64,000 nt of DNA from a virus: IMG/VR virus record IMGVR_UViG_3300035099_000047, positions 1 through 64,000 of that record. One strand, written 5' to 3'. The notes below the pieces were generated by a model. It had not been told where the DNA came from and ran no database searches. It saw nothing but the letters and a program-made list of their open reading frames with translations. Positions 26,870 to 50,014 of this stretch are shown here, piece by piece. Position numbers and translations under genes: made by a program. Position 1 is the first letter of the stretch. Each line of letters begins with the position of its first letter.

Positions 26870-27280
26870 TCAATTATCTACATCACTTAACTCTGATCTG
26901 ACCCGCCTAGACCTCAAGTACCCACTCAATTTCCTAGCGGTTTTCAGCGAAGCGTCAGCTATCCATTCCACATAACCAAGATCCACATCATCCCAAGCTT
27001 CACCCCTGTGAGCCTGAAACGGACACAATTGCCTACCAAACAGCTTGGCCTCAGCATCTGTCATCGGAGAAACAGCAAAATCCTTAACCGACTTACTCTC
27101 CCCGGGCCTCCATTGACTTATCAATTCGTAAATGCGGTTGGCAACAATACGTCTACCATCATCATCCAACGATTCACATTCCTCCTTGACCAGTTCAACC
27201 AAACTGTCAGCTATTTCCCCTGCATTCATATCATCGCCTGATCGCCTCATAACACATAGCATCCACCCCAGCCCGTCCAC
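26870..27280 (-). CDS. DUF3820-like protein
   Basis: CPFQAHRGEAWDDVDLGYVEW resembles the MPFGKHKG motif. Confidence 0.5.
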   Translation of the reverse strand: MDGLGWMLCVMRRSGDDMNAGEIADSLVELVKEECESLDDDGRRIVANRIYELISQWRPGESKSVKDFAVSPMTDAEAKLFGRQLCPFQAHRGEAWDDVDLGYVEWIADASLKTARKLSGYLRSRRVRSELSDVDN

Positions 27281-28208
27281 TATAAAACGAAGAGTCCTTG
27301 AAAATATCTGTCACAGTCCAAGCGTATTCCGCCGCATCACCCACGGTATTCAACATGACCTTGCGGGCATAGCCCAACACTCCCCGCCGGATGTCCTCAG
27401 GATCTTCATCCAACTTGTTCAAGCACGCTGCAACCTCTTTCCACTGAACTCCTTTTTTGAATATCAATCGGGCCAACTCAAGTGTAGCACTGCTACCCAT
27501 CCCCCGTGTTACAGCATTTAGCTGCTTTTCCTTGCCCTCTACGTGGATCGCGGCATTTAACAACACCAATGCTTTACGAGGGCTGCCTTCCGCACATTCC
27601 ACGATCTTGTCTGCCACGTCCTCATCCAAATCAAACCGTTCACGGGCTGAAATGTCTTTCAGCAGGGCCAACATTTCTTCGTTTTTGAGCAGCCGGAAAT
27701 GAATTTCGGTGAATCGGGTATGAAGTGGCTTGATGATCTTTTCAGGTTCCGTGGTAGTCAAAATGAAATAGACATGATCTGGTGTAAACTCAGTCATATC
27801 CAACAGTGCATTTTGGCCATCGCTTGTTTCCTTGTGAAACTCATCAAGTAACCATATCCGCTTCCACCCTTCCTCTATTGGGCCACCCATAGGCACCATG
27901 CCCATACTATCACCAATGTCCCGTATAATGTCCACCCCCCGACCGTCGTTAGCGATATTGATGGCCTGCCAATCCATATCATGACACTTCAGCCTGTTTT
28001 TAAGTATAAGCGCCACTGTTGTCTTTCCAGTTCCACTTGGGCCAGAAAACATTAGTGAGTGAGGCACCTTGCCTTGGCGGCCCATTTCCTTCAGCGCCTC
28101 CACCGCGTCCTCCTGACCATACAGCTCACTGAACTTAGTCGGGCGGTATTTTTTGTACAACTCCATTTCACCGTCGTTGCTCATACCACTCGCCTTTTGT
28201 GAAACCAA
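27231..28208 (-). CDS. dnaX: Clamp loader AAA+ (DNA Pol III gamma/tau-like)
   Basis: LYKKYRPTKFSELYGQ, GPSGTGKTT, LLDEFH, AEGSPRKAL. Confidence 0.88.
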   Translation of the reverse strand: MVSQKASGMSNDGEMELYKKYRPTKFSELYGQEDAVEALKEMGRQGKVPHSLMFSGPSGTGKTTVALILKNRLKCHDMDWQAINIANDGRGVDIIRDIGDSMGMVPMGGPIEEGWKRIWLLDEFHKETSDGQNALLDMTEFTPDHVYFILTTTEPEKIIKPLHTRFTEIHFRLLKNEEMLALLKDISARERFDLDEDVADKIVECAEGSPRKALVLLNAAIHVEGKEKQLNAVTRGMGSSATLELARLIFKKGVQWKEVAACLNKLDEDPEDIRRGVLGYARKVMLNTVGDAAEYAWTVTDIFKDSSFYSGRAGVDAMCYEAIRR

Positions 28209-29590: not shown

Positions 29591-29619
29591 TCCATTAACA
29601 ACTTACAACCATATGCATG

Positions 29620-29692
29620 TGGGTCTATCAGGAATCGGACCTGAGACCTGGTGTTTATAAGACACCTGCTCTAACCACTGAGCTATAGACCC
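29620..29692 (-). tRNA. tRNA-Ile(UAU)
   Basis: GGGTCTA/TAGACCC acceptor stem, D-arm GCTC-AGTGGTTA-GAGC, anticodon arm GGTGT-CTTATAA-ACACC, T-arm TCAGG-TCCGATT-CCTGA, discriminator A, no encoded CCA. Confidence 0.88.
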
Positions 29693-31419: not shown

Positions 31420-32436
31420 TCACTCCTTCTCCACAGGACCGATCAACGTGATGTACTCCCACTTATCAGTCTCCACCCTCAAACGGCTAGGCGCCACAAT
31501 GGCCGAATCCGCTTTGCGGCTAATCTCAGACAACAACCGGGGGTTTATCCTAAAACTCATTTCTCCACCATCAAATTGGCAGTCCCGCGTGCCCCAATAC
31601 TGCCCATTTTTGCCCCGGCCCTTCACCCGGAGTTTGTCAGGCCGCAACTCCACCGTGACATAACCTTGTTCATCAGCATCGGTAAAATCACTGGCCCGAT
31701 CCAACACTTCATCCAAAGCCTTGGGAATGCTCAGTTTTTTGCCTTCCACTTTCAAAAAGGGAGTCAAGTCAGGGTAGCGGTAATTCCCAACCGTATTGTA
31801 CCGACGACAACTCAACATCAACCCTTCAGGGTTACGGAAGTGAAACCAACTATCAGTTTCACTGTACTGAGTCATCTCCAAGCCCGTGCACAACTGTATT
31901 GCCTCCCGGTGCAATAGGCAGTCCCGAGTCAACTTCAACTTGACAGGATAACGGCTGATTTGGAACTTATCACTGGCTTCAACCCAATCAGGGGTCAAAT
32001 GCACACAAGTGAGCACTGCCCGGACTGCTTTGTTGCTGCAGCAGTTCCGAACCACCCCCATTGCATCCCAAAAATTGGTAGGCAAGTCGTTCCACTCACC
32101 TGGATTTTCGATCTCTTCAGTAGGCAAGGCAATCTTGGCTTCCATACTGATCACAGCCCGGTCCCCAGGTACCCGAACACCCAAACCCCCCTGTTCCAAA
32201 CCAATCTCCACTTCATCCTGGGGCAGCTTGCGCAACAAAGACAACAACTCTTTACCGTGAACAGCCCCCTCAAAATCAACCTTGCATTCCACCCGGCAAG
32301 CCACAGTCTCGTTGTATGTAACCACATAACCACCATGGAACACAAAACAGTCGCTTTGGGCCAAATTCGGTATTTTAGCCAAACCAGCAGCCATGGCTTC
32401 CAATTTGTTCAACAGATCTTTGCGTTTAACTTGCAT
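31420..32436 (-). CDS. dnaN: Sliding clamp (DNA Pol III beta-like)
   Basis: 338 aa three-domain pattern; RAVLTCVHL, ASDKFQI, YPDL, INPRLLSE. Confidence 0.75.
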   Translation of the reverse strand: MQVKRKDLLNKLEAMAAGLAKIPNLAQSDCFVFHGGYVVTYNETVACRVECKVDFEGAVHGKELLSLLRKLPQDEVEIGLEQGGLGVRVPGDRAVISMEAKIALPTEEIENPGEWNDLPTNFWDAMGVVRNCCSNKAVRAVLTCVHLTPDWVEASDKFQISRYPVKLKLTRDCLLHREAIQLCTGLEMTQYSETDSWFHFRNPEGLMLSCRRYNTVGNYRYPDLTPFLKVEGKKLSIPKALDEVLDRASDFTDADEQGYVTVELRPDKLRVKGRGKNGQYWGTRDCQFDGGEMSFRINPRLLSEISRKADSAIVAPSRLRVETDKWEYITLIGPVEKE

Positions 32437-32583: not shown

Positions 32584-33396
32584 TCAACCGTTACTGTACA
32601 CCTTAGCAACCTTGATGGGGTTGAGTTTCTTCTTAAACTTTAGCAAACCCTCACTCCCCAGGCTTCCACCATCATTCACCAACTTTTTACGATTTTGAAC
32701 CCATTCGCTGGTGTAAAACAAATATCGCAGGTACTCCTGCAAAAACGGATCCCCCCGATCCACACACAAGCGATGGTTGATATACATCCAGTTCTCATCG
32801 CAAACGTTTAATCCCACCAACTCACCATTCAAGAACAACCCCCAACGCAGCAAACCCCGGATGGCAAACCGCAACATGACTTCAACATCTTCCAACTCCC
32901 TACCTTTTGCCCATTTGTCCAACAAGTTGGCTGCCCCCTTACTACATTCCCTTTCATCCAACCTACGATACCAAATGTTGCCTGTTGTGCGGCTACACCA
33001 TTTGTGTACGTTGCGACGGAATGTCAACCATTTATTACCCACCATGAACAAAAACTGCTTCGGATCATAAATGATTTGATAATCCAAAAATTTCGTCAAC
33101 TCACCATCACCCCAACCCTTGTCAGGTTGGCTAGCCCAACAAGGAACGCTCAAATCAGGGGTATCATTGGTGTCCAAGGGGCAAACAAACCAACCATCCT
33201 CCCCAGGCTCTACAAAACCCCTGTATTCAGCAACTTGATTCCATTCCAAATCCTTCAGAGTCAAGTATTCTGCACTCTGAAAGAAATTAGGCTCCACGCC
33301 CACCTTCATCAGGCAATTCAAATAGTCCAGGATTAGCCTTTCGTTTACCACCACCGCGTTCCTTTTTAGGCAACTCCCCCTTAACCTCTTTTTCAC
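32584..33396 (-). CDS. DUF2156 / Fem-like GNAT-fold (tRNA-dependent aminoacyl-transferase-like) protein
   Basis: DYQIIYDPKQFLFMVGNKW..FRRNV and VNDGGSLGSEGLLKFKKKLNP. Confidence 0.65.
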   Translation of the reverse strand: MKKRLRGSCLKRNAVVVNERLILDYLNCLMKVGVEPNFFQSAEYLTLKDLEWNQVAEYRGFVEPGEDGWFVCPLDTNDTPDLSVPCWASQPDKGWGDGELTKFLDYQIIYDPKQFLFMVGNKWLTFRRNVHKWCSRTTGNIWYRRLDERECSKGAANLLDKWAKGRELEDVEVMLRFAIRGLLRWGLFLNGELVGLNVCDENWMYINHRLCVDRGDPFLQEYLRYLFYTSEWVQNRKKLVNDGGSLGSEGLLKFKKKLNPIKVAKVYSNG

Positions 33397-33460
33397 GAAG
33401 CAATCGCTCGATAAGCTTCTTGCTCACCCCTCCTGATTTACGACTCTTGCCGCCCACTTT

Positions 33461-33748
33461 CTAACCCTCCCCCTTTCCAGAACAACTACCAGGCATCGAA
33501 GGGAAACGATGCAGCAGAGACTTCAATGCCTTATCATATTCAGCCTTCTGGAGGAAGTATTCCCTGTCGTCCTCCACAACCATAACAGAAGAAGGTTCCC
33601 CTTTATCACCTATTCCATCAGGCATCTCTAAATCATTACTACCACAACGCGGGCAACAATTGATTGGTGGCCCCCCATCATCTGCTACATAGGTCACTTC
33701 ATATTGCAACTCACAATCAGTACAACGGATCAGGCGCAATTCAGTCAC
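33461..33748 (-). CDS. Zn-ribbon protein
   Basis: CTDC...CPRCGS. Confidence 0.6.
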   Translation of the reverse strand: MTELRLIRCTDCELQYEVTYVADDGGPPINCCPRCGSNDLEMPDGIGDKGEPSSVMVVEDDREYFLQKAEYDKALKSLLHRFPSMPGSCSGKGEG

Positions 33749-33757
33749 GATTTTCCC

Positions 33758-34000
33758 CTAAAAAGCAAACACCTGAACCCCATTGCAAAGCACTCTCGCC
33801 CGTACCCCACTTCCTTTGCGCACCAATTCCGTGGCTTGAATAACAGCAGCCTCCAAAGTGTACATGGGAATGATTTGAGGATTCTGACCCTTACAAGTGA
33901 CTTCTATTTCAAACATGTTCGACAGCCTCCCAGCGCAAAAATTTAGCCAGTTGACGGTAGTCAGACCTCCACTCCACCCGCCAAGGTCCCCCTCGCTCAC
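33758..34000 (-). CDS. Hypothetical protein
   Basis: ORF on coding strand. Confidence 0.4.
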   Translation of the reverse strand: MSEGDLGGWSGGLTTVNWLNFCAGRLSNMFEIEVTCKGQNPQIIPMYTLEAAVIQATELVRKGSGVRARVLCNGVQVFAF

Positions 34001-34112
34001 CTATCAATTGCACCCGGGTGCCTCCACTCCGTTTAACAGCTAAAACCACCCGATCAGCTGTTTTCTTCAAGTGATACTCTCTGCTACAACTAAACCTATC
34101 AAGCCTCATCAC
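33909..34112 (-). CDS. Hypothetical protein
   Basis: Coupled to the upstream gene. Confidence 0.4.
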   Translation of the reverse strand: MMRLDRFSCSREYHLKKTADRVVLAVKRSGGTRVQLIGERGGPWRVEWRSDYRQLAKFLRWEAVEHV

Positions 34113-34831
34113 TTGTCCTCTTGCATTTCTCCACCCAGCTCATCATACACACACATACTTACTCTACCACGCATGTCTAGCTTCAAATCGTCAGACTCAA
34201 CATGAACCACGTCTTTCCCACCAAACCAAAACTTAACCTTATCTACAAACGTGTACAAAGCCATAAAATCATCCGTCCGCATACCCAAAGGCCCAAAGTG
34301 ATCAATCTCCACCGGGAACAACGGCATCCCTTTAGGCTTGTGTTCCACTTTAATCATTGTGCCTGTATAGATATTGCGCTGCACTATAGTCAGTTGTCCT
34401 TCGCGAGCACTAAACTCAATGTGACTCAAGCTATCATCCAGTAACTTACACACCTCACGAGGTATTACAGTCATACCGCCTATCGGCGGGCCTAACCTCC
34501 GAAACATATCCATTACCTGTTCCGGTGTATACTTGGGGGTCCTGCAACTCTTGGTGCGAATGTATTCTGGACTCTCCGCCCCATCAGTCAATATGAATTC
34601 CACTCGCCCGTCTTTCTCTACAACCTCTGAACTGTCGTAATCATTGGCTTCAAAGCTCACTGGGTGAGCAAACGGCTTTTCCCCAGTCAGGAACCGAAGC
34701 AACACCGTGCGATCGAAGTTAAGTATGTACACCCTATCATCAATACAATACACCGTGTTGCGAAACCGACCACACTGATGCAAAGCCACTGCATGCGAGA
34801 AAATGTTTTCTACGCGGTCAGATATTTTCAC
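34109..34831 (-). CDS. Hypothetical protein, possibly a divergent sliding-clamp fold
   Basis: 240-aa alternating alpha/beta pattern; coupled to a radical SAM gene. Confidence 0.55.
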   Translation of the reverse strand: MKISDRVENIFSHAVALHQCGRFRNTVYCIDDRVYILNFDRTVLLRFLTGEKPFAHPVSFEANDYDSSEVVEKDGRVEFILTDGAESPEYIRTKSCRTPKYTPEQVMDMFRRLGPPIGGMTVIPREVCKLLDDSLSHIEFSAREGQLTIVQRNIYTGTMIKVEHKPKGMPLFPVEIDHFGPLGMRTDDFMALYTFVDKVKFWFGGKDVVHVESDDLKLDMRGRVSMCVYDELGGEMQEDK

Positions 34832-36335
34832 AAATCAGGTCCTTTCTAAAATCGGTACCATCCCAAGTCCAAGTCTTACCATCCCGGTCATGCCCCACGG
34901 GTTCCAACCCTCTAGCCCAGCCGTGAGAGTAAGCATCATTACTTCCAGAGACATTCCAAAGCAAGTGGACCTCTTGTTTCAACGATTCACTCAAGAATCC
35001 ACCATGTTCATTTACCCAATTTACAAAATCTTGCCAATTGGTAGCCTGATTGCCCCGGCGTTTGATAAACCGGGCAGCCATCACCGCACAACCATAATTG
35101 AAACCCCCTCGGAACCAATCCCCCACTTCACAGCAAACGTCATCATCGTTGTCTGGCACATTGCCCATATCAAACGTGCTACATCGAATGCCCTTTTCCC
35201 TAAACAACTTCATAAACTCCCCAAGTAACAGACTACCCAACGGCTGACTGTCACACCCTAATAGGACCAAGCGATCCCAATCCAATCCAACATTGCAAAA
35301 TGCTTGATACATACCAGGGTTCTTAGCCGTATAGCTGTAAGTATCAAACGTAATGTGCCCCACCCCTGCATCCTTGAGGTCTGATATGTACCGCTCCACT
35401 TCGTCGGGTGGGTCACTCAAATACACCAAGAACGGTTCAATCCTAGCTACCACCCTCACCCCAGCCGAGGCCAATTGTTTCATAGCCCAAATGCGCCGTT
35501 CGTAACTAGGAGCACCAGGTTCCAACGCCTTGAGCACTTTGTTGTTGCTAGAAATCAACGTAACATGAACCGCCGCCTTGCCCTTGTTCTTGGCTAGGGC
35601 ATCCACGTAGTCATCTTCTCCAATCAAGTCACTCTTGGTGTTAACCATAGTAGGATAGGCCGTGTTAGACAAGTATCGCAGCAAACCGAGGCTAATACCC
35701 AACTTCCTCTCTTTGGGTAAAAAATCCTCGAACCGAATACCTAACCGCATAGGGATTTCCAAGGCAACTGCACGTTTCAAAGCTACCAAGGGGGATCCTG
35801 CATAGGCTTGCCAACCAGACTTACCTCCCCGAGTAGCCATCTTTTCCCCACTAGCAGTAACCCGAGCTATGCGACGCTCAGCCTTTTCATCGGATTCCCC
35901 TGATATGCTGTGGGTATCTTTACCCCGATAAGCCATCAACTTATCAAGCTCTCTGCAACTTTCATCCAAGTTACAATGGCGTAAGCCTACTGAGCGACTG
36001 TTGTCAAAAAAGGCTGTGTACAAAGTTGACTTAAAATTGCAAGCAAAACAGTATTTACATGCGTAAGGACAAAATATTGCATCGTACACATCCAAATTTA
36101 GAGGCATTGGACAAGCAGCTGCTCTGCAACTAACCTCAGCAAACGAGCCAAAATTATCCTCTTGCAACATGCGGGCCCGGCTTTGCCACTCTCTATTGTC
36201 CTGCTTAAACTCACGATACCCTTTTTTGCGCCCCTTTTCCTTTACAGCCTCCACCTTACCCCGGTCATCAACCAAGGGTTTCATGCGAGGGATCATTTGA
36301 CTCACAGCTTTGCGCAGCGCGTAGTAATTACTCAA
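34818..36335 (-). CDS. Radical SAM enzyme (SPL-like)
   Basis: CPYACKYCF, NTKS, LEPGAPSYERR, ARIEPF. Confidence 0.85.
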   Translation of the reverse strand: MSNYYALRKAVSQMIPRMKPLVDDRGKVEAVKEKGRKKGYREFKQDNREWQSRARMLQEDNFGSFAEVSCRAAACPMPLNLDVYDAIFCPYACKYCFACNFKSTLYTAFFDNSRSVGLRHCNLDESCRELDKLMAYRGKDTHSISGESDEKAERRIARVTASGEKMATRGGKSGWQAYAGSPLVALKRAVALEIPMRLGIRFEDFLPKERKLGISLGLLRYLSNTAYPTMVNTKSDLIGEDDYVDALAKNKGKAAVHVTLISSNNKVLKALEPGAPSYERRIWAMKQLASAGVRVVARIEPFLVYLSDPPDEVERYISDLKDAGVGHITFDTYSYTAKNPGMYQAFCNVGLDWDRLVLLGCDSQPLGSLLLGEFMKLFREKGIRCSTFDMGNVPDNDDDVCCEVGDWFRGGFNYGCAVMAARFIKRRGNQATNWQDFVNWVNEHGGFLSESLKQEVHLLWNVSGSNDAYSHGWARGLEPVGHDRDGKTWTWDGTDFRKDLICENI

Positions 36336-36897
36336 CTTTAATCCCCTTCTCTCCCACGTACTTGTCCTCTTCCCAACCCGGGAACTTCAATTTACCTGAC
36401 TTAAACAAGGGTCGGAATATCTGAACAATTTCCTTTTCCCATCTTTTCATCATTTTTTCGTATGCTTTGAGATTAACAAGGGTCCCTTGACGACAAAGAT
36501 CCCGACAGCGATCCTGATGCTTGCGCCGTTGCAAATTGAGAAAATGTTGAAGTGAACAACAAGGGTCTCCTTCCCCACACAGTTCGTCTCCGAACATGCC
36601 CTCTTCTGCAGCCAGCTTCCAAGTCCCTTTCCGACACATGTCCGTAAACTCTTTACCTGCAGAACCTGACCACAACAACGTCCCCGGTAGCCACTTTTTT
36701 CCCTCAGCCACTAAGTAAATACGACACCTTTCTGCTTTAGCTATACCTTCACCCGGGTAAGGCTCAGCTGGCCGAATCGCCACATCCTTGCTGCCTATAC
36801 CTTCTCCGAAAGGGTGAAAAAGATCTATTGACTCAGCCATTTCCCGCACACCCGCCGCATGACCCACGTTAGACATTTCAAATCTCCCTTCCAACAT
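36328..36897 (-). CDS. Hypothetical protein in the modification cluster
   Basis: Overlaps both neighbours. Confidence 0.55.
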   Translation of the reverse strand: MLEGRFEMSNVGHAAGVREMAESIDLFHPFGEGIGSKDVAIRPAEPYPGEGIAKAERCRIYLVAEGKKWLPGTLLWSGSAGKEFTDMCRKGTWKLAAEEGMFGDELCGEGDPCCSLQHFLNLQRRKHQDRCRDLCRQGTLVNLKAYEKMMKRWEKEIVQIFRPLFKSGKLKFPGWEEDKYVGEKGIKVE

Positions 36898-37753
36898 TCC
36901 AAAACAACACTGGGTCTTTCAACCCTTTTATTCTACACCTCAACCACTCCCAAGCCTTCAAATCATAGTACCTATGACATGGAAATGGACATTCCACGGT
37001 ACTTGCTTGAGTGTATTCCCAACCCGGGTCCTCCAAGACCAGTGGACTACCACCGAGGCCTCCCCCCATTGGGTAGCCCCGAGCCTCGATTGATTCCTTT
37101 TTATGCTCCAAGTCCCCAGTACGCCCCATCACGCCTATTATTATACCATCCCCAGGCTTCCAACCCCGTAACAAACCCGCACAAACCGTTCCACTGCCCA
37201 CCGGTACCACTGTGGTCGCCGGTCGAATCAACTGAGTAACCGTTTTAACCCATTGATCCGCTGTAGCCTCTACAGTTTCACTCAATGGCAAACCCAACTC
37301 AAGCATTTCTGAACCATTCTTGTACCTATCCTTCAACATTTTCTTGCTGGAGTAATAGTTGATCTTGGCCCGTCCAGCCTCAATAGGCACCAACTCAGCC
37401 CCAAATTCCTTCCATTTGGCCCGGTGTTTCAACAACAATTCATTCGGCTGATTGTATTGAGGATCAAATATCACAGCCCTCATACCCAATTGTTGAGCTA
37501 CCCAAGCCACCCCGACCCCAGCCATGCTAATGGATGTCTCTGTGTATCCCACCACTGAGATCCCATTAGCTTTCAAACTACTCATCTTTTCCCACAGTCC
37601 ACGAACCTTGCTGAACGGAGGACCAGGCGCAGGGCAACATTGGTCTTCCCGCTTGACATACACGGTACGGCCCTTTACTTGATACACCTCCACCGGGGTA
37701 AGGGGATTTAGCTGAATCACACTTTCAAGCCCCACCGCAAACGCTTGCGACAC
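36878..37753 (-). CDS. PLP-dependent enzyme (fold type II)
   Basis: LTPVE...YVKRED...SKVRG, VPVGSGT, YYDLKAW, LFWNVG. Confidence 0.85.
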   Translation of the reverse strand: MSQAFAVGLESVIQLNPLTPVEVYQVKGRTVYVKREDQCCPAPGPPFSKVRGLWEKMSSLKANGISVVGYTETSISMAGVGVAWVAQQLGMRAVIFDPQYNQPNELLLKHRAKWKEFGAELVPIEAGRAKINYYSSKKMLKDRYKNGSEMLELGLPLSETVEATADQWVKTVTQLIRPATTVVPVGSGTVCAGLLRGWKPGDGIIIGVMGRTGDLEHKKESIEARGYPMGGGLGGSPLVLEDPGWEYTQASTVECPFPCHRYYDLKAWEWLRCRIKGLKDPVLFWNVGREI

Positions 37754-38568
37754 AACTCAATTTGGCTCTCCCGTACATCCACACCCACGCTGTTCCTACC
37801 CCACCATTGGGCCACTTCACACGTAGTGCCCGAACCAACAAAAGGGTCCAAGACCCATCCTCCCGGAGGGCAACAACTCAAAATAAAAATCTCTGGCAAC
37901 CCTTCCGGGAAGGGGGCTTCGTTTTCATGAGCCAACTGATCCCCAATGTTACCACCTCCTACCACAAAGTGAAATACATTGCCCGGATTGGCCTTTTCCG
38001 GCGTTGTACGGCAGTTACGTTCCGGCTGCCTACGATGGGTAACCCGAGTGCCATCCTTGTTACGATTGCTCATCGCACCCCCAGTTCCATATTTAGGCTC
38101 GTGTCCACAAGCAGTGTTATCTGACCAGGGCAATTTACCAGGCCGCTTGAGGCATATAATGTACTCCCAATCCGCTCGAAACCAATCGTCCCCGCCACTG
38201 CCGGGAATGCCTACTCTATAATACACACATGGCCGATACATATGACAATCACCACCAGTCTGAAACCATTTAACCATCAAGGCTTCAGCCACTGGATAGT
38301 AATTGCGGTCCCTAGTAGGACAACCCATCACCCAAATCACCGGACCCTTGCAAATACGGGCGGCCTCAGTACTGACCTCCAACATATGGTCCACATATGT
38401 TTCAAAATCATCCCACCACTGCCATTCCTTCGACATCCCGTAGGTGCGAGCAAACAAATATGGCGGACTCCCGAACACCAAATCGAATCGATCGGCTGGT
38501 TGGGCTCTCATCCAAGTCAAGTTATCAGCACAAACCAGCTCGACCTTGATCACAACACAAATCTCCAC
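37717..38568 (-). CDS. DNA methyltransferase, beta class (probably N4-cytosine)
   Basis: SPPY catalytic motif precedes SAM motif VLDPFVGSGTT. Confidence 0.88.
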   Translation of the reverse strand: MEICVVIKVELVCADNLTWMRAQPADRFDLVFGSPPYLFARTYGMSKEWQWWDDFETYVDHMLEVSTEAARICKGPVIWVMGCPTRDRNYYPVAEALMVKWFQTGGDCHMYRPCVYYRVGIPGSGGDDWFRADWEYIICLKRPGKLPWSDNTACGHEPKYGTGGAMSNRNKDGTRVTHRRQPERNCRTTPEKANPGNVFHFVVGGGNIGDQLAHENEAPFPEGLPEIFILSCCPPGGWVLDPFVGSGTTCEVAQWWGRNSVGVDVRESQIELCRKRLRWGLKV

Positions 38569-39524
38569 GATCTACGTTTATCCAACCCTAGCTTTTGCTT
38601 GAACACATCTATTGTGTCTCCACAAATTATCCTACTCACCCCCAACCCACCAATCCATTCCAATGTCTTGGCAAAACCAAACACAGCAAAGCTATTATCT
38701 CCCAACTGGTGCTTATTAACCGTGATTTGTGCCTTGTCTCCCTTGACCTCAAATCCCACTGTGGCCCAAAGTACCCCATCACTTTTACGTCGGAACGACA
38801 AGAATTGGATATTCCCCACACCAGCGAAATACATGTCCAAATAAGCCAAATAATGACCCTTAAACAACATGAAATGACGATCCTTAGCATCTTCCGTCCA
38901 GGTGTCCCACAATTCTCTCACCTCTTCCTTTGAAAACTCACCTAAACCAACCTCGTACCGTTCTTGAGACAACCTGTAGTCCCGACGCATAACGTAACGA
39001 TGTTTGCCACTGTGGTGTGCTATCCTGTCCTCTAACACAAAAGGCGTGTCCACATAGTATTCATAATCACCTAATGGTTGTCCTTGCGGCCTCTCCCTAA
39101 ATGCAAAAGTCAATGATTTGACTTTACCTTTTATCCCTTGCAACGTTTGCAAGGCTTCCTCTGCACTACCACGAAACGTAATCAATTTGTAGTGGTCTCC
39201 ACGCCTTCGCAACAAGCAATTATCCACAAAACGGGCTTCACTGTTGTTCAAACTCAAACAAAAAGCAGCAGCAGAAGCTGGAAAATCAAAATAATCCAGT
39301 GGAACTTCACCTGCCAACCACTCACTAACCTTACCATAGGTTTCTTCCAACAAACCACCACCAATATCAAAATCAAAACCTTCCAACACGGCTATCCACC
39401 CCAAAACCTTAAAAATCAAATCCTTCCATCTCTCCAACCTGCTCCACCTCAATAGGTATTGGCTCCAAAAACTGAATATCAGTAGGGTCTCCATGGCCCA
39501 ATAGCACCACCGAAGCAAAGCCAA
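38550..39524 (-). CDS. Second DUF2156/GNAT-like protein (start probably internal)
   Basis: DYEYYVD...RYVMRRDY...WDTW...FKQKLG pattern parallels 32584..33396. Confidence 0.5.
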   Translation of the reverse strand: MALLRWCYWAMETLLIFSFWSQYLLRWSRLERWKDLIFKVLGWIAVLEGFDFDIGGGLLEETYGKVSEWLAGEVPLDYFDFPASAAAFCLSLNNSEARFVDNCLLRRRGDHYKLITFRGSAEEALQTLQGIKGKVKSLTFAFRERPQGQPLGDYEYYVDTPFVLEDRIAHHSGKHRYVMRRDYRLSQERYEVGLGEFSKEEVRELWDTWTEDAKDRHFMLFKGHYLAYLDMYFAGVGNIQFLSFRRKSDGVLWATVGFEVKGDKAQITVNKHQLGDNSFAVFGFAKTLEWIGGLGVSRIICGDTIDVFKQKLGLDKRRSWRFVL

Positions 39525-40116
39525 ACATACCCACCATTTCCACTCTCAAGTTCACTCTAGCCAATCCCTTGCTGAGCAACCAATAGTATTCCTCCACAGA
39601 CTGCACCCCATAGCTTTTACTCAAAGTACCAAACTTGAAAGCAAAACAAGCAGTATCCGTAACCATCAATCTATGACAAGCCTTACCAAACCTGCCCAAC
39701 ACCTCCCACCAATTCTCCAACTTACGATAGGTAAAATTATCACAGTCCATGAAGCACAGATCACAATCTGGAGGGTCCCAATTCCTAACATCAAAATTAG
39801 TGATTTCAGAGCAATACCCCCAATTGTCCTTTAGTATACTACAACAGTCTTCACTAAAGTCATTTAGATACATTTTGTCTATATCAAAACAACTGCTGGC
39901 CACAGCGGCACTAAAACCACAACCAGCCATAGCATCCAGGTAACACTGCAAATGTTTATCCGGTATAGAGCAATAAACCGCAGCAATTGCTCCGTACTTG
40001 TTTTTTATGTCCTTCCAGTGCCTTCCAACAAACTCACCCGGGGGCAAAAGCGCCCCATCTGCCCTCCGAACCATATCAGGCAACTTCAAACTCTTCCCCA
40101 TCACATGATAAATCAC
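39409..40116 (-). CDS. SAM-dependent methyltransferase-fold protein
   Basis: LDAMAGCG, LNDFSEDC, DLCFMDCDNFT. Confidence 0.65.
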   Translation of the reverse strand: MIYHVMGKSLKLPDMVRRADGALLPPGEFVGRHWKDIKNKYGAIAAVYCSIPDKHLQCYLDAMAGCGFSAAVASSCFDIDKMYLNDFSEDCCSILKDNWGYCSEITNFDVRNWDPPDCDLCFMDCDNFTYRKLENWWEVLGRFGKACHRLMVTDTACFAFKFGTLSKSYGVQSVEEYYWLLSKGLARVNLRVEMVGMFGFASVVLLGHGDPTDIQFLEPIPIEVEQVGEMEGFDF

Positions 40117-41171
40117 AGCCCAGCATCCTTTAATGTAAAAAACTCACAACCATCTTCGCCCATCACTATTTGTTTGCCCTTATCATAGTCCCCTACACCT
40201 TCCCAGGTTCCTTCTAACACTTCCACTTTACTCCTACCCTGTTGGATACGGTGCACCCACCAATGAGTGTTAAACTTACTAGGATTAGGCACTGTTACGC
40301 CACAGCAGGTATTGCTCCGCTGCCGCCAACCCGGTTCCACATTAACAAAATCAGGACAACCCAGCACCATACCTTCCTCATCAGCTATTCTACACAATTC
40401 ACGCTGTATAGGTCTCCAATGTTTGTCTTGATTCATCTCCCAAATCCGCTCTATGTCCAACCCAATCTCAACAAACCGTTTAGCCACATGGTCATTCATG
40501 TGTAAATTGTAAGTGTTGTAGCTATGAACCCCAACAGATTTCAACCGTTTCAGCATATCACGGAACTGCTCAACCGTGTGATAGCCAGGTATGAATGGCT
40601 CACCATTAACTCCCACCTTGAATCCCCGTTTGACCCACTGAGCCATCAACTTGAACCGTTCCGGAACAGGTGTGGTCCGCCCTCGCTCTAACACCTCCCA
40701 ATCGCTCTCAGCTCCAGGACTGATGATGGGCATAATGGTCAACCCACCTAGCTTGTCCGCCTGCGCTAGCAAACCCTCTTCCATGTACAGTAACCCAAGA
40801 AACCGGGTTTGGATCACGTAGGACCACTCTAGTTGGATTAAGTGTTGCTGTATTCGATGAGACACCCGGTGTTCCGACTCAGCTAACTGATAAGGATCAG
40901 CCTTGTTGCCCAACCGAATAGTTTTTTTACGCTTGAGGGCCCAAGCCAAGCTGCTCTTGGGATTGGGGTTTTTCAAACCTCGCTCAAGCTGTCGGCGCAC
41001 CTCGTCTGGATCGGCCGGGCGGAGATCTTGACCCCAAGTGCGGTTCAGACGCCGCATATAGCAATGGTGACAGTCGGTCAAGCAATTCCAATAGGAATCA
41101 ATGGAAAGAGGCAAGGGGCAATACAGACAGTCCCCTCGGATGCCAACTGCCGATTGGTAATGTCCGGGCAT
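40113..41171 (-). CDS. Radical SAM enzyme (SPL-like), paralog of 34818..36335
   Basis: CPLPLSIDSYWNCLTDCHHCY, RLGNKADPYQ, EPFIPG. Confidence 0.85.
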   Translation of the reverse strand: MPGHYQSAVGIRGDCLYCPLPLSIDSYWNCLTDCHHCYMRRLNRTWGQDLRPADPDEVRRQLERGLKNPNPKSSLAWALKRKKTIRLGNKADPYQLAESEHRVSHRIQQHLIQLEWSYVIQTRFLGLLYMEEGLLAQADKLGGLTIMPIISPGAESDWEVLERGRTTPVPERFKLMAQWVKRGFKVGVNGEPFIPGYHTVEQFRDMLKRLKSVGVHSYNTYNLHMNDHVAKRFVEIGLDIERIWEMNQDKHWRPIQRELCRIADEEGMVLGCPDFVNVEPGWRQRSNTCCGVTVPNPSKFNTHWWVHRIQQGRSKVEVLEGTWEGVGDYDKGKQIVMGEDGCEFFTLKDAGL

Positions 41172-41492: not shown

Positions 41493-42074
41493 TCAATTGG
41501 TGACAGGCGTGACCTTGTCTCCATCCACGGTCAGGGCCCCAAACATCTGTCCAGCCATGGTGGACCACTTGGCTACAACGTAGGACTCTCTGGAGTTGCT
41601 CTTACCACCAGCAGCCACGTAATGCTTATCGATAGCTTCCGTCAGCTGTGCAATGGTGGAAGGACCCTTCAGTGCCACAACCACCTCCAAACCGGCCTTC
41701 ACCCGGCTGAGCTTAGATTGCTTGGGGGGCTTGGGGGCCTTGGCTGTCCCTCGTGGCCTTCCCCGCTTTTTCTCAACCACAGGGGCCGCAGGCTCAGTCG
41801 CCTCAGCAACACCTTCATCACCATTGGCTTCCACCACAGGCTTAGCCTCTTTAACCACCTCAACTTCGCCCTTGGTGCGGATCAACGTCTGAAGCGTTTC
41901 CAACTGCTCATCGGTCAGCTCCGCATCCTCCGGCTTCACCTGTTCAGCAATCTTGGCAACCTGCTCCATGGTCTTTTCCCGGCTCCAAGAACCCGCGTTC
42001 TTGTACCCGAGTGCCACACACAAACTCACAACATCCGACCTTAACAACTGAGTCATCTCCGGTCTCCCTATCAA
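41493..42074 (-). CDS. DNA-binding protein with AT-hook (nucleoid-like)
   Basis: KKRGRPRG AT-hook, Lys/Pro linker, winged-helix-like C-terminus. Confidence 0.6.
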   Translation of the reverse strand: MIGRPEMTQLLRSDVVSLCVALGYKNAGSWSREKTMEQVAKIAEQVKPEDAELTDEQLETLQTLIRTKGEVEVVKEAKPVVEANGDEGVAEATEPAAPVVEKKRGRPRGTAKAPKPPKQSKLSRVKAGLEVVVALKGPSTIAQLTEAIDKHYVAAGGKSNSRESYVVAKWSTMAGQMFGALTVDGDKVTPVTN

Positions 42075-47599: not shown

Positions 47600-47947
47600 T
47601 CCTTGTCTAGTCTTGTCGGGTCAGGTCTGGTTTCGTCGAGTCGGGTCGCATCTCGCCTGGTCCGGTCCGGTCTAGTCACGTCCTATCATGTCCAATCCGG
47701 TCTTGCCGTGCCCTGGTCCAGCCTGGTTTGGTTGGGTTTTATTTGGTATAATCTTGTTGCACCCAGCCCTATCTAACCCAATTGTGTCGCGTTGCATCGG
47801 TCTGGTCTAGTCTTGTCTGATCCGGTCTCGTCCCGCCCTGTCTCGCCTGGTCAGGTCCAATCGTGTCATGTTCGATCTGGTTTGGTCTTGTTGGGTCAGG
47901 TCTTGTCAGGTCTAACCTTGTCCTGTCAAGTCTGGTCCAATCTAGTT
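47600..47947 (-). repeat. Pentamer array C, (RRY-NN)n, mostly GAC-NN, ~70 units
   Basis: GTC/GCC/ATC/GTT every 5 nt on the plus strand with a variable dinucleotide. Confidence 0.9.
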
Positions 47948-47953
47948 GTGGGG

Positions 47954-48481
47954 TCAAGTATCCTTCATCAGCTCTAACAACTTGCTGGGCTCTATTTGAC
48001 GTAGCCTAGTCCGGCCATCTTGTGAAAGCAAACGCTGTGCCTTATTGTGAAAGCCGCCAGAACTCAGCAATGATTCCATACCCATTTGAGCCGTCCTGAT
48101 ATTCAGTTCCAGTCGTTCCTCTGGGCTCATTTCCGACCGATCAGTCCCAACTGCTATGCGCATCATCCTCTTGGAAAACTTGTGGATGCGCTTGGAACCT
48201 CGATTCAATACCTTTAGTCGGCCCTTTGAATCTAAACACACCCAAGCTTTCTCCTCGGGAAACCACCTCCACGTCACGTTGTAATTGACTTCGGTGTAGT
48301 AAATCGCGTAAGTTACATTGCGGTATCCCGGAGATTTGGAATCGCAGGGCCTACCTACAATTTTGTTCATTTCCTCCAGGGGAATTTTGTCCCCTGGTTT
48401 TCCTTTGCACATGTGTTGAACAGCTGCAGCAGTGTAACTGCTAAGCTCATACATGCGCCTGCCGTCTCCCACGTTACTCAT
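47954..48481 (-). CDS. Partner protein of the RAMP/pentamer locus (putative winged helix + helical)
   Basis: GAAAGGA RBS; lies between arrays B and C. Confidence 0.7.
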   Translation of the reverse strand: MSNVGDGRRMYELSSYTAAAVQHMCKGKPGDKIPLEEMNKIVGRPCDSKSPGYRNVTYAIYYTEVNYNVTWRWFPEEKAWVCLDSKGRLKVLNRGSKRIHKFSKRMMRIAVGTDRSEMSPEERLELNIRTAQMGMESLLSSGGFHNKAQRLLSQDGRTRLRQIEPSKLLELMKDT

Positions 48482-48499
48482 AAATCGATCCTTTCTTTG

Positions 48500-49065
48500 G
48501 TTAAGTCTCGTCTTGTCTTGTTGTGTCGCGTTCAGTTTTGTCTAGTCTAGTCGGGTCAGGTCACATCGGGTTGGGTCTAGTCTGGTCGGGCCCTGTCATG
48601 CCTTGTCTGGTGTGCTTTGATCGCACCGTGCCCCGTTTAATCTAACCGTGTTGTGCTTGATTAGACCTTGCTTTGTCCAGTCAGGTCATATTGCGTCAAG
48701 TCGGGTCTGGTCCAGTCTCGTCAAGCCTTGTCAGGTCCGGTCTCGTCCAGTCATGTCTAGTCACGTCATGTCCAGTCCAATCCTGTCACGTCATGTCCCG
48801 TCTTGTCATGTCTAGTCAAGTCCGGTCCAGTCGAGTCCTGCCCCGTCCTGTCTAGTCACGTCATGTCCAGTCCAGTCTCGCCCAGTCAGGTTTGGTCTGG
48901 TCCGGCATCGTCCAGCTATATCTAGTCCTGTCTTGTCGCGTCACGTCCAGTCCCGTCACGTCCAGTCGCGTCCAGTCTAGTCCTGTCCCGTCTCGCCTCG
49001 CCTAGTCCAGTCATGTCTCGTCATGTCCTGTCAAGCCGTGTCCTGTCAAGCCTTGTCCTGTCATG
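48500..49065 (-). repeat. Pentamer array B, ~113 units in unbroken 5-nt register
   Basis: GTCNN periodicity on the plus strand; no long minus-strand ORF. Confidence 0.92.
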
Positions 49066-49076
49066 ACATACTGAGT

Positions 49077-49655
49077 TCATTCGTCGGTTTGGAAGTCCAA
49101 CTTATCAATCCGGAACCGTCCATTGATACCACCGTTTTCCACCCTCATGGCGCCCCAACCAATGAACTGACCAACACACCGCAGATGATCGTGGATCTGA
49201 TCCGGGGTGATTTTGCCGTCAAAGACGTCAAAATCTCCGTGGGCCACCCATTGATGGAACGTTGGGAAAATGCGAGGTACCCGCTTGGTACCTCCATGCT
49301 TACCGTCGGATGGTACCGGAAGGGGGATGGGATCCACGTCTTCGACCGTCATAGGAGATCCATCAGGTTTAAACAATAACACTGATGAACCAGGTGAAAT
49401 ACCCTTGACAAATCGGCTGGCAAAAGTGGTACGACCCTCCACCTTGCGCCCCAACCATTTGGCTGCAGACAGTAGAGAGTTGGTAACGCAGAAGGAATTC
49501 AGGTAACATTGACCTTCTGGGTTGACCCAAAGTTTCTTCTTCCAAATCCTTTCCTCGAACTGTTCATAAGTCTCCCCGTCCTGCTTTTTGTCCAGCAGAT
49601 ACCTGGAAACCATGAGATCAGCCATCCCGATCACTTGAAAAGTAACCTTCAACAT
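49077..49655 (-). CDS. Stand-alone RAMP (Cas7/Csm3-like) protein
   Basis: N-terminal strand ending G..LM, YLNSFCVTNSLLSAA helix, RIFPTFHQW, C-terminal Gly-rich loop GQFIGWGAMRVENGGINGRF; AAGGAG RBS. Confidence 0.75.
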   Translation of the reverse strand: MLKVTFQVIGMADLMVSRYLLDKKQDGETYEQFEERIWKKKLWVNPEGQCYLNSFCVTNSLLSAAKWLGRKVEGRTTFASRFVKGISPGSSVLLFKPDGSPMTVEDVDPIPLPVPSDGKHGGTKRVPRIFPTFHQWVAHGDFDVFDGKITPDQIHDHLRCVGQFIGWGAMRVENGGINGRFRIDKLDFQTDE

Positions 49656-49761
49656 ACAAACTTCTCCTTGAAAAGGGCTTCACGACTGATTGGTTCTTGA
49701 GTGTCGGCCCTGTGCCGTACTGCTAACCATGTCTTGCGCTTGCCCTTGATTCACCTAACAA

Positions 49762-50014
49762 GTTCTTGTCTGGTCTAGTTTGGTCTAGTCATATCTCGTC
49801 AGGTCTAGTCTGTTCCCGTCCGGTCCTACCGCGTCTTGTCGGGTCACATCTAGTCACGTCCGATTCCGTCGTGTCTTGTCGGGTCACATCTAGTCACGTC
49901 CGGTCAGGCTTGGTCAGATCATGTCTCGTCATGTCAGGTCGGGCCCAGTCTCGTCAGGTCTAGTCTGGTTTGGTTCGGTCCCGTCTTGTCCCGTCCTGTC
50001 AGATCGGGTCAAGC
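49762..50014 (-). repeat. Pentamer array A, ~50 units
   Basis: GTCNN periodicity; internal 30-nt duplication gtcttgtcgggtcacatctagtcacgtccg. Confidence 0.9.

Follow-up and report, generated by a model that had tools for sequence, protein, structure and literature searches.

A kinase-free candidate DNA hypermodification module among the replication genes of an uncultured sediment phage

Pseudomonas phage M6 (Yuavirus) makes 5-(2-aminoethyl)-deoxyuridine in its DNA through an amino acid:DNA transferase (gp51), a PLP decarboxylase (gp52), a radical SAM isomerase (gp53) and a 5-hmdU DNA kinase (gp54), with gp52 decarboxylating an amino acid attached to thymine in DNA and gp53 isomerising glycinyl-thymine (PMC8989533). 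In both M6 and phage ViI, the entry route runs through a hydroxymethyl-pyrimidine, a DNA kinase and an amino acid:DNA transferase. A different precedent is Mom of phage Mu, a GNAT enzyme that transfers glycine from Gly-tRNA(Gly) to N6 of adenine in double-stranded DNA (PMC13219725). Other enzymes that use aminoacyl-tRNA, such as the C-terminal DUF2156 domain of MprF and FemX-type transferases, aminoacylate lipids or peptidoglycan precursors, and spore photoproduct lyase (SPL) is a DNA-acting radical SAM enzyme that handles a thymine methyl radical.

We analysed a window of 64,000 nucleotides, positions 1 to 64,000 of the 172 kb IMG/VR virus record IMGVR_UViG_3300035099_000047, which derives from an uncultured phage known only from contigs assembled from sediment metagenomes. 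Positions 32584–41171 hold a tightly coupled operon on the minus strand, with overlapping or abutting ORF ends. The operon and its neighbours are as follows.

41493..42074, minus strand: X193 (193 aa), a conserved gene of unknown role between DnaB and gene A
40113..41171, minus strand: A (352 aa), an SPL-like radical SAM enzyme, core member and first gene of the module
39409..40116, minus strand: B (235 aa), a predicted class I SAM methyltransferase fold, accessory
38550..39392, minus strand: C (about 280 aa from the GTG start; the longer ORF to 39524 overlaps B), a probable second Fem/DUF2156-like tandem GNAT, accessory and rare
37717..38568, minus strand: D (283 aa), a beta-class N6-adenine/N4-cytosine DNA methyltransferase, accessory
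36878..37753, minus strand: E (291 aa), a fold-type II PLP enzyme homologous to M6 gp52, accessory
36328..36897, minus strand: F (189 aa), an orphan ORF
34818..36335, minus strand: G (505 aa), an SPL-like radical SAM paralogue of A, core member
34109..34831, minus strand: H (240 aa), a predicted two-domain PCNA/gp45/9-1-1-like sliding-clamp protomer, core member
33461..33748, minus strand: I (95 aa), a small zinc-ribbon protein of unknown role
32584..33309, minus strand: J (241 aa from the internal Met; the ORF extends to 33396), a DUF2156/LPG_synthase_C tandem-GNAT fold, core member and last gene before the beta clamp
31420..32436, minus strand: a DnaN-like beta sliding clamp (338 aa), a conserved neighbour and not part of the pathway itself

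The two radical SAM enzymes each carry the cluster motif. In A (CLTDCHHC), C30/C34/C37 form the CX3CX2C motif, and C18, C272 and C289–C290 are also invariant in 73 sequences; A matches the NCBIfam Rv2578c/PA0069 family (E 1.7e-8) and is found in 94 viral contigs at 45–76% identity. G (CPYACKYC) matches PF04055 (E 1.5e-7; 32.2 bits, above the 29.5 cut-off) and phrog_13321 (E 9e-18), with invariant C89/C93/C96 plus C75 and C401–C402, and in relatives it is interrupted by inteins near the cluster motif. Profile–profile alignment with hhalign links the G family to the A family (E 2.5e-22) and both to M6 gp53, A at 96.4% (E 1.4e-9 over 256 columns) and G at 94.5% (E 7.8e-8). The PLP enzyme E matches PF00291 (42 bits, above the 35 cut-off) and phrog_7093 (E 2e-51) and is 35.6% identical to M6 gp52 over 93% of its length. 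Its K49 aligns with the Schiff-base lysine K36 of gp52, and 34 columns, including FWNIG, are at least 95% conserved.

Of the remaining enzymes, D matches PF01555 (E 3.6e-25, 89.6 bits) and phrog_67, with motif IV FGSPPY and motif I DPFVGSGTT visible in the translation. Among the loci of relatives (numbered L), an orthologue of D sits inside the cassette in L003, and D-cluster methyltransferases sit inside the module in L025/26, L067 and L073, although the methyltransferase may be an independent anti-restriction gene. B has no HMM hit, but an AlphaFold model (pLDDT 85) matches class I SAM methyltransferases in a Foldseek search of the PDB, with Trm1 (3axs) as the top hit (E 3.5e-10); B has 10 relatives, paired with an aldo-keto reductase or with the PLP enzyme. 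J is assigned by fold and by weak HMM scores (13 bits for the window's own copy): 29 of 48 family members hit PF09924 (best E 1.3e-6), the family profile hits the DUF2156 structure 2hqy (E 1.7e-5), and the Atlas model aligns to PF09924-bearing clusters at TM 0.80–0.82 by query. Support for C is thinner and its assignment is only probable. It rests on Atlas language-model neighbours, which score 0.95 and of which all named ones are LPG_synthase_C, Acetyltransf_6 or Mig-14, and on one relative that hits Acetyltransf_6 (PF13480) at E 0.026; hhalign against the J family is not significant, and only 4 other homologues were found in 5.8 billion proteins, plus those in L025/L026.

F has no Pfam, PHROG or NCBIfam hit, jackhmmer finds no relative of it in 88 loci, and relatives have unrelated small ORFs at this position. 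I gives only weak Zn_ribbon_8 and FmdB hits (E 1.5e-3 and 5e-4, below cut-offs), was a singleton in the clustering and is not conserved in relatives. X193 carries a basic RGRPRG stretch and belongs to a cluster of 47 members at the same position, but has no family hit. The family profile of the neighbouring beta clamp hits DNA polymerase III beta structures (E 2.8e-23).

An earlier note, made from the sequence alone, had recognised two radical SAM enzymes, a PLP enzyme, two methyltransferase folds and two DUF2156/GNAT proteins here, but missed that H is PCNA-like. The AlphaFold model of H (pLDDT 89.9) hits 9-1-1 and PCNA structures in the PDB by Foldseek (E 2.5e-9, TM 0.5–0.63), and Atlas comparison gives TM 0.65–0.71 to PCNA, gp45, Rad9 and beta-clamp clusters. 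A head-to-tail homotrimer is predicted with an ipSAE of 0.68, against 0.00 for the best of 3 controls; the same mark was reached by 20 of 30 solved one-chain pairs and 1 of 23 single chains, the runs share at least 92% of contacts and pLDDT is at least 80, although the pass may rest on likeness to solved PCNA rings. Further, B (9/11 family members), the cluster c27 (4/4), several DNA methyltransferases (7/21), some A proteins, as appended tails, and DnaB end in a short G[FL]x[FL]-type tail, compared with 85/1728 overall, which is what clamp-docking peptides look like. The B protein of this phage ends in EGFDF.

Comparison with relatives separates a core from a cassette. In 48 non-redundant loci that span the module, A, G and H are always present and J is present in 47, always in the order A, cassette, G, H, J, beta clamp and always between DnaB and a true beta clamp. 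In 79 H-anchored loci, H always occurs with G and J where the flank is long enough. The 11 genes are not one fixed pathway but a four-gene core (A, G, H and J) plus a lineage-specific cassette. Between A and G lie PLP (20 loci), nothing (15), the methyltransferase-fold B plus an aldo-keto reductase (5), a FAD DAO-like oxidase plus an aldo-keto reductase (2), two SAM methyltransferases plus PLP, or an amidoligase; these are enzyme classes that act on an amine, a carboxylate or a carbonyl, and the variation is of the kind expected of tailoring sets. The PLP enzyme is present in 25 of 48 loci. The window carries the richest cassette seen in this set, and no cultured phage carries the module. A and G are the most conserved genes of the region, with a median identity of 51% compared with 29–35% for DnaB, beta clamp and PolA. 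The position is a DNA-modification hot spot, where relatives carry Mom, Dam, N6/N4 methyltransferases and a PAPS reductase. All instances sit on one broad phage backbone, so part of the co-occurrence is inheritance; against that, three loci (L028, L037 and L048) have a large gene of one cluster in place of PolA, the L028 member having DnaE-type polymerase domains.

The enzymes that start the known pathways were not found. ThyA, ThyX, TET/JBP, both 5-hmdU kinase families (PF18748 and PF18723), the amino acid:DNA transferase (PF18724) and Mom (PF25680) have no HMM match in the 172 kb record, which extends to the whole record the earlier note's statement that kinase, transferase and hydroxymethylase are missing. 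The record is only about 78% complete, leaving the possibility that an entry enzyme lies in the missing part, but no ThyA-like cluster showed up in the gene-order tables of the relatives.

Taken together, these data support the earlier note's reading of a new DNA hypermodification route that shares PLP and radical SAM tailoring enzymes with M6 but lacks the known entry enzymes, possibly loaded by tRNA-dependent GNAT-type transferases; everything that could be tested agrees with it. We consider the operon probably (about 0.6) a post-replicative base hypermodification system of an uncultured virulent phage lineage, although no modified base has been observed and DNA as the substrate, the tRNA donor, the target base, the order of steps and the product are inferences at most. 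In this reading, the core installs an amino-acid-derived side chain on a normal base in finished double-stranded DNA, replacing the entry route of M6 and ViI. J would deliver an amino acid, probably from aminoacyl-tRNA, as MprF, FemX and Mom do; the radical SAM pair would make or rearrange the carbon link to the base by hydrogen abstraction, as M6 gp53 does on glycinyl-thymine and SPL on the thymine methyl group; and H, as a ring on DNA, would hold the enzymes on the substrate. The cassette would then tailor the side chain, here through E (probably a decarboxylase giving an amine), B, C (a second aminoacylation) and D. One difficulty is that aminoacyl transfer uses up the carboxyl group that a gp52-like decarboxylase needs free, such that the simple order of J first and PLP later does not work without a rearrangement, unless J acts last on an amine. 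In addition, the donor of DUF2156 enzymes appears to be known only for lipid and natural-product enzymes, tRNA genes near the module are sporadic and of different kinds, and H could be a replication or late-transcription clamp that merely travels with the module.

Other readings appear unlikely. The enzymes might make a modified nucleotide before replication, or modify RNA such as tRNA, with their position reflecting only the timing of expression: radical SAM enzymes, class I methyltransferases and aminoacyl-tRNA-binding folds are common in tRNA modification, the best structural match of B is the tRNA methyltransferase Trm1, a tRNA-Ile(UAU) gene lies 3 kb away, and nothing here shows DNA binding by A, G or J. 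However, the closest characterised relatives of E, A and G act on DNA polymer, a bona fide DNA methyltransferase sits inside the cassette, a clamp-fold protein is an obligate partner, clamp-type C-terminal tails occur on cassette enzymes, tRNA genes are not consistently linked, and no nucleotide kinase or dNTP-handling gene is found in the module.

Still less likely, A and G could be SPL-type repair lyases protecting replicating phage DNA, with the other genes as unrelated passengers. Both fall in the SPL-like 'DNA repair photolyase' group, as M6 gp53 is also annotated, and they are tightly linked with replication genes; but the strict four-gene unit includes a DUF2156 transferase, a variable set of amine and carboxylate tailoring enzymes is inserted between A and G, the gp52 homologue has no role in repair, and UV photoproducts are unlikely in the dark sediment from which the phage comes. 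Similarly doubtful is a module that modifies a protein (for example H, which would then be substrate rather than platform, the beta clamp or X193) or makes a small-molecule or peptide product. Fem-type transferases, radical SAM enzymes, PLP enzymes, FAD oxidases and aldo-keto reductases are typical of peptide and natural-product pathways, yet no precursor peptide or carrier protein is conserved in the module, the homology is specifically to the DNA-acting gp52 and gp53, DNA methyltransferases and Mom share the site, and the position between helicase and clamp is invariant.

Compared with the M6 pathway, the logic of an amino acid on a base followed by tailoring is the same, and in both phages the PLP and radical SAM genes lie close together beside replication genes, adjacent in M6 and separated by F here. 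Unlike M6, this phage has two radical SAM paralogues instead of one and no detected dUMP hydroxymethylase, TET/JBP, kinase or amino acid:DNA transferase in 172 kb, and its module has an obligatory DUF2156 transferase and PCNA-like clamp and an optional PLP enzyme. Mom is the precedent for an acyltransferase-fold enzyme that uses charged tRNA to modify DNA, and Mom-family genes occur at the same genomic site in relatives (L004 and L055), but J is a tandem-GNAT DUF2156 protein rather than a Mom-family protein, and Mom works alone, whereas J is always found with two radical SAM enzymes and a clamp. J shares its fold and weak profile similarity with the MprF C-terminal domain and FemX-type transferases, and C resembles the same clan by language-model features, but J and C are small soluble phage proteins with no membrane domain, placed in a replication operon. 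A and G belong to the same radical SAM subgroup as SPL and the Rv2578c/PA0069 families, with no significant direct sequence match to SPL structures and in a context that is biosynthetic, not repair. Finally, similar to T4 gp45 and PCNA sliding clamps as docking platforms, H has the two-domain clamp fold with a predicted trimer and partner enzymes that end in short hydrophobic tails, but the phage also has a DnaN-type beta clamp next door, and H is found only with G and J.

The window comprises the first 64 kb of a 172,227-base linear IMG/VR virus record, estimated to be 78% complete, whose source is a sediment metagenome. Genes run on the minus strand, and from 41171 down to 32584 the ORFs overlap or abut in the following order:
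A, radical SAM enzyme, 352 aa
B, 235 aa, class I SAM methyltransferase fold in a predicted model
C, about 280 aa from a GTG start, probably Fem/GNAT-like
D, DNA methyltransferase
E, PLP enzyme
F, orphan ORF, 189 aa
G, radical SAM enzyme, 505 aa
H, 240 aa, predicted clamp protomer
two doubtful small ORFs
I, zinc ribbon, 95 aa
J, 241-270 aa, DUF2156/LPG_synthase_C

Upstream lie a DnaB helicase and a conserved 193-aa protein (X193). Downstream lie a 338-aa protein, a UDG-exonuclease, tRNA-Ile(UAU), the family A polymerase, an RFC-like clamp loader and gp32. Also present in the window are:
47600-50014 (read at 48480-49080, minus strand), long arrays of about 110 head-to-tail 5-nt units, GACNN with a variable NN, which are kept in strict register and interleaved with two small genes downstream of the primase region, a very unusual arrangement
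22692-24314 (minus strand), a 540-aa TnpB/Cas12f-like protein (OrfB_IS605, HTH and TNB domains) inside the replication module between gp32 and RecA-side genes, a singleton among 88 related loci and so a recent insertion

A and G carry CX3CX2C cluster motifs, invariant in 73 and 55 sequences, respectively, and match the SPL-like Rv2578c/PA0069 radical SAM models and phrog_13321. G passes the PF04055 cut-off, whereas A scores below it (17.3 bits); the two are nevertheless paralogues by profile-profile alignment (hhalign E 2.5e-22). The A-family profile gave nothing significant against PDB sequences. E is a fold-type II PLP enzyme (PF00291, 42 bits against a cut-off of 35; phrog_7093, E 2e-51), and D is an N6_N4 DNA methyltransferase (PF01555, 89.6 bits against a cut-off of 26.7) with FGSPPY (motif IV) and FVGSGTT (motif I) visible in its translation. 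B has no HMM match, but its predicted model (pLDDT 85) is a class I SAM methyltransferase fold. ORF F has no family and no relative by jackhmmer in 88 loci, and we treat it as an orphan ORF of uncertain reality.

J was assigned to DUF2156/LPG_synthase_C on the basis of its relatives and its fold. Of 48 relatives, 29 hit PF09924 (best E 1.3e-6), although the copy in the window reaches only E 0.051; the family profile hits PDB structure 2hqy at E 1.7e-5, and the Atlas model superposes on PF09924 domains at TM 0.80-0.82. Searches of PDB sequences with C or J alone by phmmer gave nothing significant. C is only probably Fem/GNAT-like, resting on language-model features, and alignment of the C family to the J family was not significant (hhalign E 0.081, probability 0.7%), so we do not claim that C and J are paralogues. 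The longer C ORF would overlap B by 116 nt. In this region (39366-39432, minus strand), the last codons of B (GAA GGA TTT GAT TTT TAA, ending EGFDF) are repeated about 40 nt downstream as GAA GGT TTT GAT TTT GAT, in the frame of C and just after its likely GTG start. This looks like a recombination scar from cassette insertion at the tail motif, and it also explains the apparent overlap.

The 338-aa neighbour is a true DnaN-type beta clamp (family profile against PDB, E 2.8e-23). H is predicted with a pLDDT of 89.9 to fold into a two-domain PCNA/9-1-1/gp45-like clamp protomer. A three-copy model of H gives a head-to-tail interface in which edge strands 88-97 pair with 156-165, with an ipSAE of 0.68 against 0.00 for the best of 3 controls. 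That mark was reached by 20 of 30 solved one-chain pairs and 1 of 23 single chains; the runs share at least 92% of contacts and pLDDT is at least 80. This pass may, however, reflect likeness to solved PCNA rings. The phage encodes both a DnaN-type beta clamp (31420-32436) and a predicted PCNA/gp45-type clamp (34109-34831), but only one RFC-like loader gene was seen in the window (27231-28208). Overall, the inventory in the earlier note, which listed two radical SAM enzymes, a PLP enzyme, two DUF2156/GNAT proteins and two methyltransferase folds, is right, with C, which is only probable, as its weakest item, but the note missed one important gene, H.

We next compared the operon with known DNA hypermodification pathways. 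A tblastn search with E finds 70 phage records, mostly M6-like Pseudomonas and Bordetella phages, at about 35% identity over 93% of the protein. In phage M6 this gene is gp52 (35.6% identity, E 5e-48), and the next gene is gp53, an SPL-like radical SAM enzyme. In M6, gp53 isomerises N-alpha-glycinyl-thymine to C-alpha-glycinyl-thymine in DNA, gp52 decarboxylates the product to 5-aminoethyl-uracil, and gp51 (amino acid:DNA transferase) and gp54 (5-hmdU DNA kinase) perform the steps before these (PMC8989533). Here, K49 of E aligns with the proposed Schiff-base lysine K36 of gp52 and is conserved in at least 95% of 40 sequences, across which 34 columns reach at least 95% conservation. The A family aligns with gp53 over 256 columns (hhalign 96.4%, E 1.4e-9) and the G family over 84 columns (E 7.8e-8).

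By contrast, nothing in the 172-kb record, which is about 78% complete, matches ThyA, ThyX or Tet_JBP (PF00303, PF02511 and PF12851), the amino acid:DNA transferase (ADDT/aGPT-Pplase2, PF18724) or either 5-hmdU kinase family (the P-loop domain PF18748 and the helical domain PF18723) at E<=1. The M6 proteins served as positive examples for those models. The record also has no match to Mom (PF25680). Blastp of the M6 cluster proteins against all ORFs finds only the PLP enzyme, the radical SAM enzyme and the polymerase.

To examine how this gene set varies, we collected related loci. J has 36 relatives in a set of 5.8 billion proteins, and their contigs show the same neighbourhood. A single-protein pattern search of viral contigs with G found nothing, but an alignment of A found 94 viral contigs, of which 80 were fetched. 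After clustering of all ORFs, the order is constant: DnaB, X193, A, a variable cassette, G, H, J, the beta clamp and then polymerase genes. In the 48 non-redundant loci that span A to the clamp, G is present in 48, H in 48 and J in 47; the exception, L014, has an unrelated minus-strand ORF at the position of J and may be a gene-calling failure. An independent search anchored on H gave 79 loci, and every one with enough flank also has G and J.

The PLP gene is present in 25 of the 48 loci. Between A and G, 20 loci carry PLP only, 15 carry nothing, 5 carry B plus an aldo-keto reductase, 3 carry an unknown 230-aa protein (c27) and 2 carry a DAO-like FAD oxidase plus an aldo-keto reductase, with the remainder being single cases, including two SAM methyltransferases plus PLP. 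One lineage, counted under PLP only, also carries an amidoligase after the PLP gene. The window, with B, C, D, E and F, has the richest cassette in the set. Some relatives (L080, L082, L085 and L035) carry a third SPL-like radical SAM gene (486-507 aa), preceded by one or two small conserved ORFs (c21 and/or c31), between J and the beta clamp.

A and G are the best-conserved genes of the region, with a median of 51% identity to the window, compared with 29% for DnaB and the clamp and 35% for PolA. In several lineages (L004:6147-8696, L009:6776-9174, L044, L050, L076 and others), G is interrupted by Hint/intein sequences next to the CX3CX2C motif, giving proteins of 612-849 aa or split genes, as happens to essential, conserved genes; the copy in the window has no intein. 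Three loci (L028, L037 and L048) have, in place of the split PolA, a large gene of one cluster, and the L028 member tested has DnaE-type polymerase domains. The module is therefore not tied to one polymerase. The same site also collects Mom, Dam, N6/N4 methyltransferases and a PAPS reductase in relatives. Mom-family genes (PF25680, E 6e-33) sit between J and the beta clamp in L055 (16013-16924) and between PolA and the clamp loader in L004 (15101-15754), so some members of the clade may carry two different DNA modification systems, one of them known and one inferred to depend on tRNA.

Megablast of the operon and tblastn of A and J against 50,697 GenBank phages found no match, and G gave only three weak partial hits in human-gut contigs. 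Among 185,579 prokaryotic species genomes, only four MAG contigs carry A (Thioalkalivibrio, Nitrospiraceae, Melioribacteraceae and Bacteroidota bins); these are probably binned phage contigs, and no host could be assigned.

Comparison of C-termini revealed a short terminal G[FL]x[FL]-type motif at the end of 9 of 11 B proteins (EGFDF in the window), 4 of 4 c27 proteins, 7 of 21 D-cluster methyltransferases and 13 of 73 DnaB proteins, as well as a subset of A proteins, in which it is appended after the conserved KDAG end through a short charged linker. The background is 85 of 1728 ORFs. This is how clamp-binding peptides look, and it fits enzymes that work on DNA from a clamp, although binding to either clamp remains hypothetical.

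Taken together, A, G, H and J form a four-gene evolutionary unit; A, G and E are homologous to enzymes that work on amino-acid-bearing bases in DNA; and the variable genes encode enzymes whose classes act on amines, carboxylates and carbonyls, with no known entry enzyme found. We infer that the core puts an amino-acid-derived group on a normal base of double-stranded DNA and that the cassette edits it, although the DNA is known only from assembled sediment-metagenome contigs, which cannot show modification. In the most economical scheme, J brings the amino acid from charged tRNA, the radical SAM pair creates or migrates the bond to the base by hydrogen abstraction, and H keeps the enzymes on DNA. 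The characterised DUF2156 and Fem enzymes appear to use aminoacyl-tRNA, and Mom has shown that a tRNA-to-DNA transfer exists (PMC13219725). One difficulty is that acyl transfer consumes the carboxyl group that a gp52-like decarboxylase needs: either a rearrangement frees it, or J acts on an amine made by the other enzymes, or the side chain comes from another donor. Nor did we find a dedicated tRNA donor gene. The only tRNA in the 172-kb record, tRNA-Ile(UAU), lies between the exonuclease and polymerase halves of the split PolA (29619-29692, minus strand) and is conserved at that place in the closest relative (L003:13622-13696), but relatives have Gly(CCC), Leu, Phe or Met tRNAs at scattered places with no consistent link. 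The D methyltransferase of the window may be a separate anti-restriction methylase, because similar genes sit at several places around the module in relatives.

Other readings are possible. The enzymes might act on nucleotides or RNA, might carry out plain SPL-type repair, or might perform protein or small-molecule chemistry; we consider each of these unlikely, the first somewhat less so than the other two. Each is weakened by the specific gp52 and gp53 homology, the clamp partner, the embedded DNA methyltransferases and the cassette pattern, although none is excluded in the absence of chemistry. H could also be the ordinary replicative clamp of the phage, which we neither accept nor exclude: a DnaN-type clamp lies next door, and H was not found without G and J in loci with enough flank. 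Finally, SAM-derived aminocarboxypropyl transfer (diphthamide-like) as the source of the side chain would fit the tailoring set, but A and G have the canonical cluster motif, which points to 5'-deoxyadenosyl chemistry, leaving this as a minor possibility only.

A more far-reaching hypothesis, which we hold only tentatively, is that a widespread clade of uncultured phages makes a family of undescribed DNA bases by direct radical C-H functionalisation of an ordinary base in finished DNA. In this view, two SPL-like radical SAM enzymes and an aminoacyl-tRNA-dependent DUF2156 transferase ride on a dedicated PCNA-like clamp, with no hydroxymethyl-pyrimidine precursor, kinase or pyrophosphorylase, and swappable cassettes (PLP, FAD oxidase plus reductase, methyltransferases, amidoligase, second Fem-like enzyme) turn one core product into many different side chains. 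If the module acts as proposed, it would give a second, radical-based entry into DNA hypermodification, link the translation apparatus (charged tRNA) to DNA chemistry beyond Mom, provide the first sliding clamp dedicated to base modification, and offer a set of new bases and enzymes for restriction evasion studies and DNA labelling.

Phage DNA hypermodification by amino acids, its PLP, radical SAM and FAD tailoring, and tRNA-dependent modification by Mom are all published, but this gene set is not. Full-text searches for DUF2156 with phage DNA modification found nothing, and those for radical SAM with DNA hypermodification returned only the M6, PaMx11 and dapT line of work. Every characterised amino-acid-type DNA hypermodification starts either from a hydroxymethyl-pyrimidine that is phosphorylated and displaced, as in M6, ViI, SP10, PhiW-14 and PaMx11, or from Mom acting alone. 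The module described here, present in at least about 100 viral contigs, more conserved than the polymerase and found in many cassette versions, keeps the known finishing enzymes but, as far as the 78% complete record shows, replaces every starting enzyme.
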